DNA of 46,424 nt from Bacteroidota bacterium (GCA_017882185.1 JADGQA010000003.1:1-46424); one strand, 5' to 3'. Shown: positions 22,238 through 33,753, counted from the stretch's first letter. Numbers and translations are program-made. The notes: generated by a model not told the origin, from the letters alone.

Positions 22238-23164
22238 CTATGCGATGGTGTCGTTCTCAGTGATCGATAGGAAGTAGTCCTCCAGCGACCGACGGGGTAT
22301 GATCGCGTGGATTCTGACGCCACCGTTCACAAGTGCCTTCGTCAGGAGGGGAATCATTTCAAAATCCGTCGTCACCTCAAACGCACCACCTTTTTCCTTG
22401 AATTTTCCGACCAGTTGTTTCTGGCCCCGAAGAACAGCAGTCACTTTGGCTTTTGGTTCTGCTCTAAGAAGGACATACTTTTCGCCTTGATCCAAGAGTT
22501 GCTGGACGTTGCCCTGAACAACCATTTCACCTTTGTTGATAACGGCCATGCGCGTCGCCACCAGCTCGATTTCGTTCAGCAAATGGGACGACAGGAAAAT
22601 CGTTTTCTTCTGATCGCGCGCCAGGTGTAACACCAAATCGCGGACTTCCTTCATGCCTTGGGGATCAAGGCCATTCGTGGGTTCGTCAAGTATTACCAAC
22701 TCGGGATCCGATAGCAGCGATTGTGCGATTCCGAGCCGCTGCTTCATCCCGTGTGAGTACGTCTTCACTTTGTCGCGGGCTCGAGGGAGAAGTCCAACGA
22801 GATCCAGCACCTCTTCAATTCGTTTTCGAGAAACTCCATCATTGAGTGCTCCCACGATTTCAAGATTCTTGAATGCAGAGAGATAAAGGTAGAAATCTGC
22901 TTTTTCGACGATTCCGCCCACAGAGTTCAATGCGCGTTCACGTTCTCTCTTCAAAGACTTTCCGAAGATTACTACCTCCCCTTCCGTTGGAGTGATCAGT
23001 GAAAGCATCATGCGCATGGTCGTGCTCTTGCCCGCGCCATTGGGACCCAGGAACCCGAATACGTCGCCCCGGCGTACTTCGATATTGATGTCGCGGGCAG
23101 CCCATCGATTCTTGAAGCGTTTGCCGAGATTCTTTGTTTGAAGTATCGTTTCCAGATTCTGCAT
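22238..23164 (-). CDS. ABC-2-type (BcrA-like) transporter ATP-binding protein
   Basis: GPNGAGKST, YSHGMKQRLG, LDEPTNGLDP, SSH, SLEDYF. No permease nearby. Confidence 0.9.
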   Translation of the reverse strand: MQNLETILQTKNLGKRFKNRWAARDINIEVRRGDVFGFLGPNGAGKSTTMRMMLSLITPTEGEVVIFGKSLKRERERALNSVGGIVEKADFYLYLSAFKNLEIVGALNDGVSRKRIEEVLDLVGLLPRARDKVKTYSHGMKQRLGIAQSLLSDPELVILDEPTNGLDPQGMKEVRDLVLHLARDQKKTIFLSSHLLNEIELVATRMAVINKGEMVVQGNVQQLLDQGEKYVLLRAEPKAKVTAVLRGQKQLVGKFKEKGGAFEVTTDFEMIPLLTKALVNGGVRIHAIIPRRSLEDYFLSITENDTIA

Positions 23165-23185
23165 TGGATAGACAATTCGGAGGAA

Positions 23186-23274
23186 ATGACGCCAAGAAAG
23201 TAATGAATCGCGTCACTCAAGTCAAGCCAACAGAAGGCGGGAATGACCGGATGAGGAATTGACGAGAAGGCTTG
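23186..23274. repeat. 89-bp imperfect direct repeat, copy A
   Basis: Ungapped manual alignment to 25733-25821 gives 76/89 identical. Confidence 0.9.
23197..23225 (-). promoter_or_regulatory. Putative sigma70 promoter of the ABC ATPase-nth genes, inside repeat copy A
   Basis: Minus strand reads TTGACT-17 nt-TACTTT, about 30 nt upstream of ATG 23164. Confidence 0.55.
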
Positions 23275-23318
23275 AAGCAGTCGAACGAACATGTCTCGAT
23301 GATAAATCTGAGTGGTCC

Positions 23319-23365: not shown

Positions 23366-23403
23366 GTCATTGCGATCCCGACGAGGTCGGAAGAAGCAAT
23401 CTC
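23366..23403. repeat. GTCATTGCGA...GAAGCAATCTC REP-like element with an internal TCCCGAC-gag-GTCGGAA hairpin
   Basis: Sequence gtcattgcga-tcccgacgaggtcggaa-gaagcaatctc; the flanks match a widespread short palindromic repeat type. Confidence 0.6.
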
Positions 23404-23440
23404 ATTCGTACGTTCTGACGTAAATGGCAACTCACCAGAA

Positions 23441-24103: not shown

Positions 24104-24384
24104 GTTTCTCTCGGCGCCAGAGGCATACTTCCCACGACAGGTAGCCAATGCTTGAACGGGGGAAATCTAACTTCACATTGGCACCGCTACAGGGGGCTGG
24201 TCACAAATCCAAGGTAGCATAGAAACCTGTCGAACCGGACCCGAACGACACGATAGAGAATCACATTGTAGGTCTGGTTCATAGAAATTTTGACCAGCGT
24301 GAACACTCTTGTTGGCTCTATCCTAGAATTAGATGTCCGAAGCGTGAGTTGCACGATCGAGGAACACTTAAAAGAGGTATACTA

Positions 24385-25038
24385 GTGAGAAAAACCAGAA
24401 TACTCATCATTGAAGATAATCGCGTCTTGCTCGATGGTATCTCAGCAATGGTCAATGGACAAACGGATATGCATGTCGTGGCCACCATCGGAAGCGGCAA
24501 TAATATTCTGCTGAAAGCGAGCCAGAGAAAACCTGATGTGATTCTTATGGACGCTGGACTGAAGAATCTCAAAGAGTCGTCGGTTGTAGAATCGATAAAG
24601 AAACAAATGCCGGATGTGAAAGTGATAGGAATGGGATTTGTCCCGACACAACTGGACATCGTTGAGTTTGTAGAGGCCGGGGCATCGGGTTTTATTCTGA
24701 AAGATGCCACGGTAAAAGAATTTCTCGGTACTATTCGATCTGTGGCACACGGAGCAAAAATTCTTCCTCCTTCACTGGCCGGGTCGCTTTTTTCTTTTGT
24801 TGCCGAACTCGCTATCAAGGAGAGGAAGGGGAAAATAGCCGATGCCGTGCGAATGACAAAACGAGAGCGTGAAATTATCGTTCTGATAGCCGACGCTCTG
24901 AGCAACAAGGAAATTGCCGAACAACTCAATATCGCCACCCACACTGTGAAAAGTCATGTGCACAATATCATGGAAAAATTGGCATTACACAGCCGTCTTC
25001 AGATTGCACAGCACGCCAGCGACGAAAAGACATTCTAA
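24385..25038 (+). CDS. NarL/LuxR-family response regulator (orphan)
   Basis: IIED, DVILMD, GASGFILKD receiver; MTKRERE..NKEIA..L.IATHTVKSHVHNIMEKL HTH. GTG 24385 follows AGAGG. Confidence 0.92.
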   Translation: MRKTRILIIEDNRVLLDGISAMVNGQTDMHVVATIGSGNNILLKASQRKPDVILMDAGLKNLKESSVVESIKKQMPDVKVIGMGFVPTQLDIVEFVEAGASGFILKDATVKEFLGTIRSVAHGAKILPPSLAGSLFSFVAELAIKERKGKIADAVRMTKREREIIVLIADALSNKEIAEQLNIATHTVKSHVHNIMEKLALHSRLQIAQHASDEKTF

Positions 25039-25418: not shown

Positions 25419-25736
25419 ATGAACTGGGATTGAGTTGAAGGACAATGGAAGCAACGAAGAGGAAAAGCGATGTACCATTGGGGCAAAGTAATGAACGACG
25501 AGCTCGCCGCCATCTCAGGGAAGTTTGAGAAACTTGTTGGAAGGCTTCAAGAGAAATTCGGCATTGCTAAAGAAGAGGCCAGGGAACAGATTGAGGAATA
25601 AAAAAAGAGCATCGAGAACCTAAAGAAGTCCAATGTCAACCTCGTGAGATTGCAGGAATCATTGAGCAAGAAAGAAAAGAAGTCGGACAGGAAACCGGCG
25701 AAATCAAAAACGAGTATGTCGAAGGTCCGGATATGA
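25419..25736 (+). pseudogene. csbD: CsbD-family stress protein pseudogene
   Basis: Manual translation MNWD*VEGQWKQRRGKAMYHWGKVMNDELAAISGKFEKLVGRLQEKFGIAKEEAREQIEE*KKSIE...; in-frame TGA 25431-25433 and TAA 25599-25601. Confidence 0.8.
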
Positions 25737-25821
25737 CACCAAGAAAGCAATGAATCGCATCACCCAAGTCAAGCAAACAGAAGACGGGAATGGCCGCATG
25801 AAAAACTTACGAGAGGGCTTG
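25733..25821. repeat. 89-bp imperfect direct repeat, copy B
   Basis: 76/89 identical to 23186-23274; the putative -10 box is changed to TGCTTT. Confidence 0.9.
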
Positions 25822-25837: not shown

Positions 25838-25889
25838 AGTGACCTTGGCGTCCCGATGCAACTCGATACATTGGGAAACGCGCAACCTA
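25838..25889 (-). repeat. Degenerate tRNA-Arg 3'-end copy with a palindromic replacement in the T arm
   Basis: agtgaccttggcg-[tcccgatgcaactcgatacattggga]-aacgcgcaaccta versus tRNA agtgaccccggcg-cgaatcg-aacgcgcaaccta. Confidence 0.85.
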
Positions 25890-25968
25890 TGGCATATCCC
25901 GCCCAAGAGCACCTGGATTCTGAAAACTTCAAAGTCGCTCGCACAAAACACTCGCGGGAAGTTTTCGA

Positions 25969-26093
25969 AGTGACCCCGGCGTCCCGATGCAACTCGACGC
26001 ATCGGGAAACGCGCAACCTACAGTTCCGTGACACCTTCGGTGTCACGAGAATCCTCGTCCCGACTTTCGTCGGGACGGGCCTTAGAAGGCTGT
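25969..26093 (-). repeat. tRNA-Arg 3'-half copy interrupted by palindromic inserts
   Basis: Exact tRNA blocks at 25969-25981, 26008-26023 and 26081-26093, separated by a 26-nt hairpin and a 57-nt double hairpin. Confidence 0.92.
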
Positions 26094-26101
26094 CTGCACA
26101 G

Positions 26102-26175
26102 TGACCCCGGCGCGAATCGAACGCGCAACCTACAGCTTAGAAGGCTGTTGCTCTATCCAATTGAGCTACGGGGTC
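26102..26175 (-). tRNA. tRNA-Arg (anticodon TCT), CCA not encoded
   Basis: GACCCCG/CGGGGTC acceptor stem, D arm GCTCAATTGGATAGAGC, anticodon arm ACAGC-CTTCTAA-GCTGT, T arm GCGCG-TTCGATT-CGCGC. Confidence 0.97.
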
Positions 26176-26483
26176 AAAGAAAATTGCGGATTTTCAATTG
26201 TCGATCTACGATTGCAGAACAGCTGTCACTCTTTCCATCGTGTACGTTGCCATTTTGGATATTCGTCGGGATACTCCCCAAAGGGGTCCTCCGGACAAAA
26301 TCACAGCCACTCACAAGAATCGTTCGTGGGTGATTTTGGTAAATATACGAAAGGAATGGTTCGGAGGCAAAGATGGAGCATTTCTTTGACGCAACTCCAG
26401 GAAAATTGCGTAAGATCTGTTGGCGGTTGTCGCGATAATCGAGGAAGAGATACAAGGATGACGACGGAGGTAACGATTGTCCC

Positions 26484-26870
26484 CTACTCGAAATCCCCTG
26501 TGAAAGTCCAGTTGGATGCCTTTCCATTCATATCGATATCGGCGACCATCGTGTCTGTGGAATCCAACGAGGAGACGCCGGTGACCTGCAGTGTTTGGGG
26601 ATTCAGGACAGATGCGGCGTATCGACCGTTCAGGTTCGAACGGTATCCTTTGGGGAGGGCGTATCCGTCAAATTTGTAGCCGCCTCCTCCTAATGCCGGA
26701 ATTCTTCTGTGGTATCGCACAGCATTGATGGCAATGTGATGGAGGTCGTCAATCATTGCTTTCTTGTTGGCGTCGATATCATCCGCCCGAAAGAATCCCG
26801 TCCCTGTGAGAATCGCAATACCGACGATGAGCACGCTAATTGCAATGATGAGCAGCTGGCTTTGTCCCAT
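26484..26870 (-). CDS. Major pilin-like protein, copy 2 (MGQxQ type, no leader)
   Basis: N-terminal hydrophobic helix then amphipathic helix, R.PALGGGG motif; 85/128 aa identical to 33367-33753. Confidence 0.75.
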   Translation of the reverse strand: MGQSQLLIIAISVLIVGIAILTGTGFFRADDIDANKKAMIDDLHHIAINAVRYHRRIPALGGGGYKFDGYALPKGYRSNLNGRYAASVLNPQTLQVTGVSSLDSTDTMVADIDMNGKASNWTFTGDFE

Positions 26871-27313
26871 ACCCGGATTCTATTGTTATTGACCCTGCGT
26901 GTCCGTACCTCTGCGGTATGATACCCTTCAATGTATATGCCACAGAACCATGTTTGATCACTGTCTGAAATCATGCGAGAACAGAGGCGCTCCCTTACTT
27001 CATCAGATGGTCGAATCCCATTTATACTTCAACGTGTGCATCAAATTACCTTATTACCTCTTCCGAGGACATTAGAATTTCTCACGCGTTTTTCAAAAAC
27101 CCGCACGGGTATGTAGGGTTCGAATCTTACGATGTCGTCGACAACGGACCATTGGATTGTCGCCTACGGGAGACAAGTTGTTAGTGCTGGGCGATTTGCG
27201 CCTTGGGTGATCCTTGCTTAGGATTACAAACGCGGCAGAAAGAATTAATGGAGGCGAAATACGAAATGCACGATCCTGGGGGAAGTTGATGCCTGTTCAA
27301 AGACTCTGTCGCG

Positions 27314-27354
27314 AAAAAGAAAACCCCCACCGACTGGCGTCGACGAGGGTTCTC
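27314..27354 (-). terminator. Intrinsic terminator closing the pilus/cargo transcript
   Basis: Minus strand gagaaccctcgtcgac-gcca-gtcggtgggggttttc (16 bp including G-U pairs) followed by T5. Confidence 0.7.
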
Positions 27355-27392
27355 CTCTAGAATATTTTGCTTAACCGACTATTCCGAGTTAA

Positions 27393-27803
27393 TCAACCCG
27401 GCCCAAAGAAAAACACGTCAATGATAACCGGGCTGGTCACATCCATGAGTGTCAGAGTATATGGTTCACTAGTAAATGTTTCGAAGTTGCCGTCGACAGT
27501 AAGCAAAAAAGAAACACCCACATTGGGTATAATAAGCCACGATGCACTTTCTCCGCTTGGAACGGAAGTTGGACCATCAACTGACCCAAGACTTGGGTCA
27601 TAATTAATCGTGATCGGTATGTCATTGGTCACGAGGACATCACCGTGCGCGAGATGCGCGGGGACTGCCTCAGGTGCCACGACGATAATATGTCCGTTGT
27701 GCACTAGTGCAACTTTGTCCTTCTTATCCCCCGCGTTCGAAGAAACATATCCGAAGATGCAAAGAACAAGAAGTAGAGAAAGCAACTTAATGAAGTGTTT
27801 CAT
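27393..27803 (-). CDS. Secreted protein with AHLAHGD His motif and a divergent InlB B-repeat-like domain
   Basis: ATG 27803 follows GAAGGAG; signal peptide MKHFIKLLSLLLVLCIFGYVSSNA; HNGH..V.PEAVPAHLAHGD; GSV....VPSG.SASW.I.PN.G....VDG.....YT...VT. Confidence 0.65.
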   Translation of the reverse strand: MKHFIKLLSLLLVLCIFGYVSSNAGDKKDKVALVHNGHIIVVAPEAVPAHLAHGDVLVTNDIPITINYDPSLGSVDGPTSVPSGESASWLIIPNVGVSFLLTVDGNFETFTSEPYTLTLMDVTSPVIIDVFFFGPG

Positions 27804-33366: not shown

Positions 33367-33753
33367 CTACTTAAAATCTCCGGTAAAAGTCCAATTGGAT
33401 GCCTTTCCGTACGTGTCAATTTGTGCGACCACCGTGTTGTTCGTATCCCTTGCAGAGACTCCTGCAATTTGCAGCACGGCCTTGCTTACTGGATTGACAG
33501 AATATTTTCCGTTCAAATTCGACCGAAAGCCGCTCGGGAGCGCATATCCCAGGTAGCTGTATCCTCCTCCACCGAGCGCTCCGATTCTCCGATAGTATCG
33601 TGTCGCATTCATAGCAATATGATTGACGTCATTGATCATCGCCTTCTTGTTTGCCTCAATCTCGTCATCCGAGAAAAACCCCGTTCCCGCCAGGATCGAA
33701 ATGCCGATGATGAGGATACTGATTGCAATGATAAGAATCTGACTTTGTCCCAT
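33367..33753 (-). CDS. Major pilin-like protein, copy 1 (MGQxQ type, no leader)
   Basis: First gene of the pilC-pilB operon, strong RBS GAGGAGAGG, 128 aa, N-terminal hydrophobic helix. Confidence 0.78.
   Translation of the reverse strand: MGQSQILIIAISILIIGISILAGTGFFSDDEIEANKKAMINDVNHIAMNATRYYRRIGALGGGGYSYLGYALPSGFRSNLNGKYSVNPVSKAVLQIAGVSARDTNNTVVAQIDTYGKASNWTFTGDFK

Follow-up and report, generated by a model that had tools for sequence, protein, structure and literature searches.

tRNA genes are classic landing sites of mobile DNA, and the agents known to act on them are integrases and phage nucleases of the SegB type. The stretch of DNA analysed here (the window; 46,424 nucleotides, contig C302 of the source genome G000) raises the question of what else may happen at such genes. 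Its sole tRNA gene, a tRNA-Arg(TCT) recognised by ARAGORN, is followed by two tandem partial copies of its own 3' part, and these copies are interrupted by palindromic hairpins. How did the copies arise, and how did the hairpins get into them? The source genome comprises 3.64 Mb in 352 contigs with 49.8% G+C and has a tmRNA; relatives are numbered in the same manner (G), as are contigs (C).

The anatomy of the locus is given in Table 1, together with neighbouring features of the window, and is as the preliminary description had it: a tRNA gene, exact tRNA-derived blocks, a double hairpin, a T-loop hairpin and a decayed second copy. In copy 2 the tRNA-derived bases are identical to the gene at 41 of 41 positions, and both the 5' strand of the acceptor stem and the D-arm are missing; the junction that precedes its first block is possibly a remnant of the 3' strand of the D-stem. 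Module A, which interrupts this copy, consists of two different hairpins joined by GAGGATTCTC. Copy 3 displays 90% identity with copy 2 over 52 nt, and its 5' 80 nt match module B, a second composite hairpin that interrupts tRNA-Arg(TCT) copies in other genera. The 3' ends of the gene, copy 2 and copy 3 are spaced by 131 and 131 nt, both units having the same length despite their unrelated 5' 80 nt. Folded as DNA and compared with shuffled sequences, copy 2 reaches z = -5.7, module A z = -6.6 and copy 3 z = 0.08, while the T-loop hairpin by itself yields -10.1 kcal/mol (z = -4.1) in copy 2 and -2.4 kcal/mol (z = 0.22) in copy 3. This hairpin is common to both copies, with two stem mismatches in copy 3, which is consistent with the earlier proposal that the unit was duplicated after its modification.

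Table 1. Features of the tRNA-Arg(TCT) locus, of its surroundings, and of the contigs that cover it (positions of the window).
Feature	Position	Strand	Remarks
Intact tRNA-Arg(TCT) gene	26101..26175	-	ARAGORN; Rfam RF00005, 72.9 bits; 93-100% identity in many relatives
Copy 2, entire	26100-25969	-	tandem partial 3' copy
Copy 2, junction of 7 nt (tgtgcag)	26100-26094	-	sequence
Copy 2, block acagccttctaag (anticodon stem 5' strand, loop, G)	26093-26081	-	identical to the tRNA; direct repeat 13/13
Module A, 57-nt double hairpin	26024..26080	-	clean insertion at the 3' edge of the anticodon loop, G before it and C after it
Copy 2, block ctgtaggttgcgcgtt (anticodon stem 3' strand, variable loop, T-stem 5' strand)	26008..26023	-	blastn 16/16
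T-loop hairpin TCCCGATGCAACTCGACGCATCGGGA, 26 nt, arms TCCCGATGC..GCATCGGGA	25982..26007	.	replaces 7 nt, CGAATCG (+ strand)
Copy 2, 3' block cgccggggtcac (12 nt, 25981-25970) plus t	25969..25981	-	tRNA 3' end; repeat 13/13
Copy 3, entire	25968-25838	-	tandem partial 3' copy
Copy 3, 5' part: decayed composite hairpin resembling module B	25889..25968	-	aligns with module B of G015, G017 and G000:C76
Copy 3, variable-loop/T-stem block, decayed T-loop hairpin (25851-25876) and 3' block	25838..25888	-	2 substitutions in the 3' block
Low-complexity heptamer repeats	26176-26230		GCAGAAT, GCGGAAT, TTGCAG-like
69-nt direct repeat	25733-25801 and 23186-23254		88% identity
LuxR-type response regulator	24349-25038		within the repeat-bracketed stretch
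GTCATTGCGA-TCCCGAC-gag-GTCGGA-AGAAGCAATC	23366-23405		dispersed GTCATTGCGA..TCGCAATGAC family
ABC ATPase gene	22238-23164	-
128-residue ORFs with pilin-like N-terminus	26484-26870 and 33367-33753	-	paralogous; MGQSQ.LIIAIS..
Leader-like matches	27312-27439	-	rnk_leader, 29 bits; His_leader, 27 bits
Logan contig X1			tiles the stretch
Logan contig X2	25868-26175
Logan contig X3	25872-26117
Logan contig X4	25592-25992

The fragmentation of the source assembly into its many contigs (352) would be the reason to suspect an assembly artefact behind the tandem structure. Logan contigs from four runs of four studies (permafrost, soil and peat metagenomes) tile all junctions with zero differences, and an artefact is thus scarcely credible; the structure described earlier is confirmed by these independent metagenome studies, among whose runs the source sample itself may be. 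The contigs of the four metagenomes display no alternative joints or alleles, bearing in mind that rare variants would not show in contigs.

Searched at a relaxed E-value, Rfam returns three kinds of match in the window and nothing else, namely the tRNA itself, a plastid-ycf2 artefact antisense to it, and weak leader-like matches; a terminator scan lists no terminator-like sites. The leader-like matches (rnk_leader and His_leader) both stay below the gathering score and probably reflect merely a terminator-like hairpin. A tRNA intron of the bulge-helix-bulge or group I type was considered for copy 2 and rejected, as this copy has neither the 5' strand of the acceptor stem nor a D-arm, and Rfam finds no intron family. 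Elsewhere in the window, two paralogous ORFs of 128 residues with a pilin-like hydrophobic N-terminus adjoin T2SSE and T2SSF genes; neither of these ORFs has a Pfam match.

The palindrome in the T-loop is not confined to this locus. The motif TCCCGA-N4-20-TCGGGA occurs in 43 copies in the source genome and ranks first among all 4096 hexamer hairpins (mean 4.9). Enrichment near tRNA genes, which the preliminary description had suggested to look for, is clear: eight of the 43 copies have one of the 35 tRNA genes within 300 nt, compared with 0.24 expected, one of these eight (on C94) being the terminator of a tRNA-Ser. Many other copies belong to dispersed composite repeats, e.g. GTCATTGCGA-TCCCGAC..GTCGGGA-TCGCAATGAC. 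A member of this family is also present in the window (Table 1); the family is found on many contigs, often before T-runs.

Partial copies are likewise a general property of the tRNA genes of this genome. Defining a self-copy as an exact match of at least 11 nt on the same strand within about 350 nt, neighbouring intact tRNAs excluded, 12 of the 35 tRNA genes are flanked by one, compared with 0.42 expected (control: 42 of 3500 random windows). The copies of Asn, Val(tac), His, Arg(tcg), Leu(tag), Ser(tga), Gly(gcc) and Met are 5' copies located upstream, and those of Arg(tct), Pro, Met on C49 and Ser(gga) are 3' copies located downstream. By eye, hairpins are inserted into, or replace parts of, 11 of the 12. 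Such plugged copies break assemblies and yield false tRNA annotations; the plugged tRNA-Ala copies of G015 (locus L037), for example, are called tRNA-Pro(agg) by ARAGORN. Low-complexity repeats of heptamers (Table 1) precede or follow tRNA genes; they are found directly upstream of the tRNA-Arg gene, upstream of tRNAs on C340, C232 and other contigs, and likewise in relatives.

The two types of hairpin enter the copies in different ways: simple TCCCG hairpins replace segments of the tRNA, and module A inserts instead. Iterative nhmmer finds four copies of module A in the source genome, each inside a partial tRNA copy that adjoins an intact tRNA; they are located at the edge of the anticodon loop of Arg(TCT), in the D-loops of Met(CAT) and Ser(TGA) and, as a variant, in that of Gly(GCC). 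Identity between these four tRNA contexts and across genomes amounts to 80-90%. The double hairpin noted earlier at the Arg locus is thereby a discrete, repeated module, which resides in loops of partial copies at other tRNAs and in other genomes as well. A covariance model of module A matches 22 of 41 relatives of the order (E <= 0.001); at E <= 1e-6 it matches 8 of 151 genomes across the phylum, all eight of them in the order, and 0 of 133 genomes sampled outside it. An exact scan of genome contigs for the module linker gave 10 matches in unrelated phyla, which is about chance level. Copy number reaches up to about 10 per genome.

At 14 of 24 module A loci in relatives an intact tRNA lies within 300 nt. 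Examination of 14 cases with an intact tRNA nearby displays a G immediately before the module in 12 of the 12 that have an alignable left flank; where both flanks could be aligned (10 cases), the next base is C or T, the contexts being CAG^C, AAG^C, CGG^C, CAG^T and GCG^T. Insertions are clean, have no target duplication, occur in both orientations relative to the tRNA, and use three kinds of site: the D-loop, the 3' edge of the anticodon loop, and the junction of T-stem with T-loop. Both helices of the module are kept, with 97% of cells paired and 6 pairs changed on both sides (6 copies from 3 genomes). This pairing implies no RNA function, since a DNA palindrome keeps its pairing on both strands.

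The loci of tRNA-Arg(TCT) in relatives carry plugged copies in five of 11 genomes (G015, G017, G014, G010, G039) and no copies in the other six (G011, G009, G022, G007, G032, G004). In G015 the T-loop is occupied, at the position known from the window, by TCCCGAC-aaaa-GTCGGGA, and the corresponding G^C site carries module B in both G015 and G017. The assemblies of G001 and G002 do not contain the locus. In G039 (C14, about 50700-51000; L011, L068), the layout is nested: a module A splits an outer, dead tRNA-Arg at its G^C site, and the loop of this module's second hairpin contains the intact tRNA-Arg(TCT). A similar arrangement is found at tRNA-Gly(CCC): in G005 the gene is followed by three tandem units of 139 nt, each consisting of a 3' half with the module at G^C, and G035 and G013 each have one such 3'-half copy adjoining the intact gene.

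The preliminary description had further suggested looking for GIY-YIG genes flanked by the hairpin. There are three small GIY-YIG ORFs in the source genome, on C106, C115 and C254 only (genome-wide tblastn; Pfam PF01541, E = 1.8e-18), and the search was positive at two of them. On C106 the ORF lies between an intact tRNA-Val and a plugged 5' copy of it, in which the anticodon loop is swapped for TCCCGAC-tcc-GTCGGGA; on C254 an ORF with an in-frame stop lies between tRNA-Ser(gga) and a 3' copy bearing T-loop hairpins. The ORF on C115 is away from tRNAs. This last ORF is placed between inverted TTCACCCYGTGAGATAG repeats (G000:C115:1400-2350), and beside it a reading frame interrupted by stops contains the Y1/HUH-like motif ..MPNHVHGIV...

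GIY-YIG matches are found in 33 of the 41 genomes of the order. At 23 of the 30 GIY-YIG loci returned from relatives, an intact tRNA is present on the same strand within about 260 nt, and 15 of the 30 have, no more than 200 nt from the ORF, a TCCCG..CGGGA hairpin that is perfect and at least 7 bp long. Hairpin density is 1.69 per kb within 200 nt of GIY-YIG ORFs, 0.087 per kb elsewhere in these loci and 0.025 per kb throughout G000. Some loci are amplified: G006:C9:1492193-1494256 (L024) holds seven tandem units with a period of 305 nt, each made up of the 5' part of tRNA-Val, a TCCCGA hairpin in place of the anticodon loop, and a GIY-YIG ORF, the array ending in an intact tRNA; G018:C2:365021-369130 (L030) is a tandem array of about 14 GIY-YIG genes with a period of 299 nt; and G015 repeats an intact tRNA-Ala, a GIY-YIG ORF and a 3' copy with a TCCCG hairpin as its anticodon arm. 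An ORF bracketed by one intact and one disrupted copy of the presumed target gene is found at C106 and C254 and in G006 and G015. The Arg locus has the intact and the disrupted copies with no ORF between them.

Based on this dataset, we lean on balance towards the hypothesis that the Arg locus is an ORF-less relic of the activity of a tRNA-targeted GIY-YIG cassette, the spare copies of which were plugged by small mobile palindromic modules. The tRNA genes of this order are hot spots for small selfish cassettes, each consisting of a GIY-YIG gene of roughly 80-90 codons between an intact tRNA and a partial copy in which a TCCCG..CGGGA hairpin has taken the place of the T-loop, of the anticodon loop or of the whole anticodon arm. 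The anatomy of the locus, its recurrence, the enrichment near tRNA genes and the association with GIY-YIG genes are observed, whereas the past action of a cassette at the Arg locus, the manner in which the modules move and a protective effect of the plugs are inferred. Part of the tRNA-Arg gene may have been duplicated through break repair or unequal recombination. The spare copies would have been free to change, since purifying selection acts on the intact gene only, and they may then have been plugged by the order-specific family of small GC-rich palindromic modules. What is left would be a working tRNA-Arg(UCU) gene and, behind it, two dead 3' copies existing at the DNA level only. Neither the anticodon arm nor the conserved T-loop motif survives the plugs, so that the copies cannot become tRNAs, and they may no longer be substrates for nucleases or recombinases that recognise tRNA genes. 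However, such protection cannot apply to the whole locus, because the intact tRNA keeps its T-loop; the gene retains its loops, the feature that a loop-recognising nuclease would read.

Some findings count against the relic hypothesis. Pfam detects no GIY-YIG ORF or remnant of one among the 37 ORFs of the window, and the spacers at the locus are too short to hold one. Among the matches listed, none of the relatives' tRNA-Arg(TCT) matches lies beside a GIY-YIG match. A GIY-YIG match is present in 19 of 22 genomes that are positive for module A and in 14 of 19 that are negative, i.e. the two do not track each other. In G057 there are 12 module copies, 0 of them with a tRNA within 300 nt, and the module is nested inside another dispersed composite hairpin repeat; given this layout, the modules are a general repeat family and not part of the cassette.

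The DNA next to the copies deserves a separate description. A direct repeat of 69 nt brackets about 2.5 kb, which contain the LuxR-type response regulator and small ORFs (Table 1). The stretch looks like an insertion or a local duplication, because in G014, G010 and G007 the tRNA-Arg gene directly adjoins the ABC ATPase gene that lies beyond it in the window.

Integrase sites within tRNA genes usually start at the anticodon arm or the T-arm and run to the tRNA's 3' end. The preliminary description had taken the 3'-half copies as such att sites, and in this form the copies would be displaced att fragments of tyrosine-integrase islands in the 3' part of tRNA-Arg, with dispersed hairpins colonising them later. 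Copy 2 (anticodon stem to 3' end) and copy 3 (variable loop and T-arm to 3' end) do have the usual extents of integrase sites, about 2.9 kb separates the tRNA from the ABC ATPase gene that is its neighbour in the three relatives just named, and on C76 an integrase-like ORF was noticed by eye after tRNA-Arg(tcg). Displaced tRNA fragments mark the ends of islands, as stated in the accessible part of the Islander account (PMC4383910). However, Pfam recognises no integrase among the 37 ORFs of the window, the copies are located at the tRNA-near end of the extra DNA and not at its far end, and there is no tRNA fragment near 23165-23300, the ABC-gene end of the extra 2.9 kb. Moreover, the TCCCG hairpins track GIY-YIG genes, and at Met, Ser, Gly, Val, Asn and His the partial copies include 5' ones, which integrases cannot have made. 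A link to att sites is not supported by these data, and we regard an integrase origin as unlikely. The same 37 ORFs comprise no transposase or nuclease gene either, in keeping with the earlier statement that the window holds no mobilising enzyme. A different source of the hairpins would be trans-mobilised DNA of the REP/BIME or MITE kind, moved into hairpin loops by a single-strand transposase (e.g. a RAYT-like Y1 enzyme), with the tRNA copies as neutral landing pads of unrelated origin and GIY-YIG genes uninvolved. The restriction of the module family to the order, its copy number, its two orientations and its clean insertion after G would fit such a mechanism, as would the dispersed and nested modules of G057 and the modules in genomes that gave no GIY-YIG match with the query used (G039, G031). 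The source genome also has six Y1_Tnp matches. Yet neither TCCCGAC-type hairpins nor module A flank any of these six genes, so that the earlier suggestion to look for RAYT genes bordered by the palindrome had a negative outcome. Each has palindromes of its own, and only C60 has TTCCCGAAAT..ATTTCGGGAA, with a loop of 30 nt. Module A consists of two different hairpins and not of an inverted REP doublet, and the simple TCCCG hairpins replace tRNA segments and cluster at GIY-YIG ORFs, all of which makes this origin improbable too. As to a MITE in the strict sense, the module A ends GTYCCGT and ACGGAAC match at 6 of 7 positions only, and there is no target-site duplication; this candidate was rejected.

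A function of the copies would be a further explanation, either as a structured RNA derived from the tRNA transcript (processing signal, decoy or small RNA) or as a regulatory DNA structure. The strong structure of copy 2, the compensatory changes in both helices of module A, and the recurrence of a 3' half with a module at G^C at Arg(TCT) and Gly(CCC) in several genera point in this direction. Against it stand the palindromes' ability to stay paired on both strands in the absence of any RNA function, the module's occurrence in both orientations relative to the tRNA, and the six of 11 relatives without copies at Arg(TCT). Copy 3 has decayed to the level of shuffled sequence, which argues against a maintained RNA. 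The Rfam match of the locus is the tRNA alone, a terminator-like site is absent, and RNA runs account for 0.06-0.07 of the sampled words of the stretch, probably the tRNA itself. A functional role thus seems quite unlikely. Still less probable, in our view, is that the hairpins originated where they now stand, when breaks in tRNA loops were mended by templated or fold-back synthesis starting from CGA-N-TCG, and were not copied from elsewhere. The T-loop hairpin does retain the CGA..TCG of the original loop, extended outward by TCC and GGA, and at the corresponding site of G015 an identical outer stem encloses a different inner sequence. The degree of identity of module A in four tRNA contexts and across genomes, however, indicates copying, and TCCCG..CGGGA stems also occur at loops that had no original CGA..TCG, such as the anticodon loop of Val and the anticodon arm of Ala. 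The growth from CGA-N-TCG proposed earlier hence appears unlikely for the double hairpin, a copied module, and possible for the T-loop hairpin.

Returning to the relic of a GIY-YIG cassette, a bolder extension may be put forward tentatively, as a minor possibility: the double-hairpin and TCCCG..CGGGA modules might represent a new class of loop-targeting mobile DNA that enters single-stranded loops of tRNA-gene DNA on the 3' side of a G and leaves no duplication, and the plugs might render the spare copies immune to GIY-YIG nucleases or recombinases. If so, the tRNA loci of this order would record an arms race between nuclease cassette, target and plug element. If the modules are mobile and loop-specific, they would offer a simple natural system for structure-directed DNA insertion as well as markers of past nuclease activity at tRNA genes. 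In either case, the tRNA genes of these uncultured soil, peat and permafrost bacteria carry a third layer besides the known agents, namely dead copies with every loop filled by a palindrome and tied to tiny GIY-YIG genes. The literature searched, with most subscription journals outside its coverage, contains no account of hairpin-plugged partial tRNA copies or of GIY-YIG cassettes in bacterial chromosomes.

Among known systems, small mobile two-hairpin elements, termed double-hairpin elements or GC clusters, occur in non-essential structured DNA and in RNA genes of fungal and algal mitochondria, and their host genomes also hold mobile endonuclease ORFs that carry duplicated gene ends. These elements are organellar and unrelated in sequence to the modules described here, and the comparison may be taken as an analogy. 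The REP, REPIN-RAYT and BIME elements, as far as covered by the accessible part of their description (PMC3116915), resemble the modules in being short, GC-rich, extragenic palindromes that are the most over-represented short sequences of their genome, lineage-specific, and arranged in mosaics with conserved linkers. In comparison with that text, module A differs by its two unlike hairpins, by the lack of a flanked RAYT-like gene, and by a strong bias to the loops of dead tRNA copies. The displaced tRNA fragments of integrase-borne islands are similar as partial 3' tRNA copies beside an intact gene, reaching from the anticodon arm or T-arm to the 3' end; the copies described here are unlike them in that they are interrupted by hairpins, have no integrase and no island between gene and copies, and are accompanied by 5' copies at other tRNAs.

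The closest comparison is with the phage GIY-YIG enzyme SegB, which, according to the accessible parts of two reports, recognises the T-psi-C motif of tRNA genes (PMC2330249) and, as a nuclease with the cleavage motif RAWTSGAAC, causes segments to be amplified in tandem by recombination (PMC13096335). The T-loop of the Arg gene, GAATCGAAC on the + strand, fits this generic motif, and it is precisely this segment that gives way to the hairpin. SegB serves here as an analogy only, since the small GIY-YIG proteins of this order have no counterpart of its DNA-binding part: SegB is a phage protein with such a part, and the genes found here are chromosomal and encode little beyond the catalytic domain. 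Hairpin-plugged partial tRNA copies are not described for SegB in the available portions of either report (PMC2330249, PMC13096335). The likeness lies in the arrangement and its consequences. In phages T4 and T6, as far as these texts go, a GIY-YIG gene is located within a tRNA gene cluster, and breaks repaired by recombination lead to tandem amplification; relatives of the source genome likewise have GIY-YIG genes beside tRNAs (23 of 30 loci) and tandem arrays (G006, G018).
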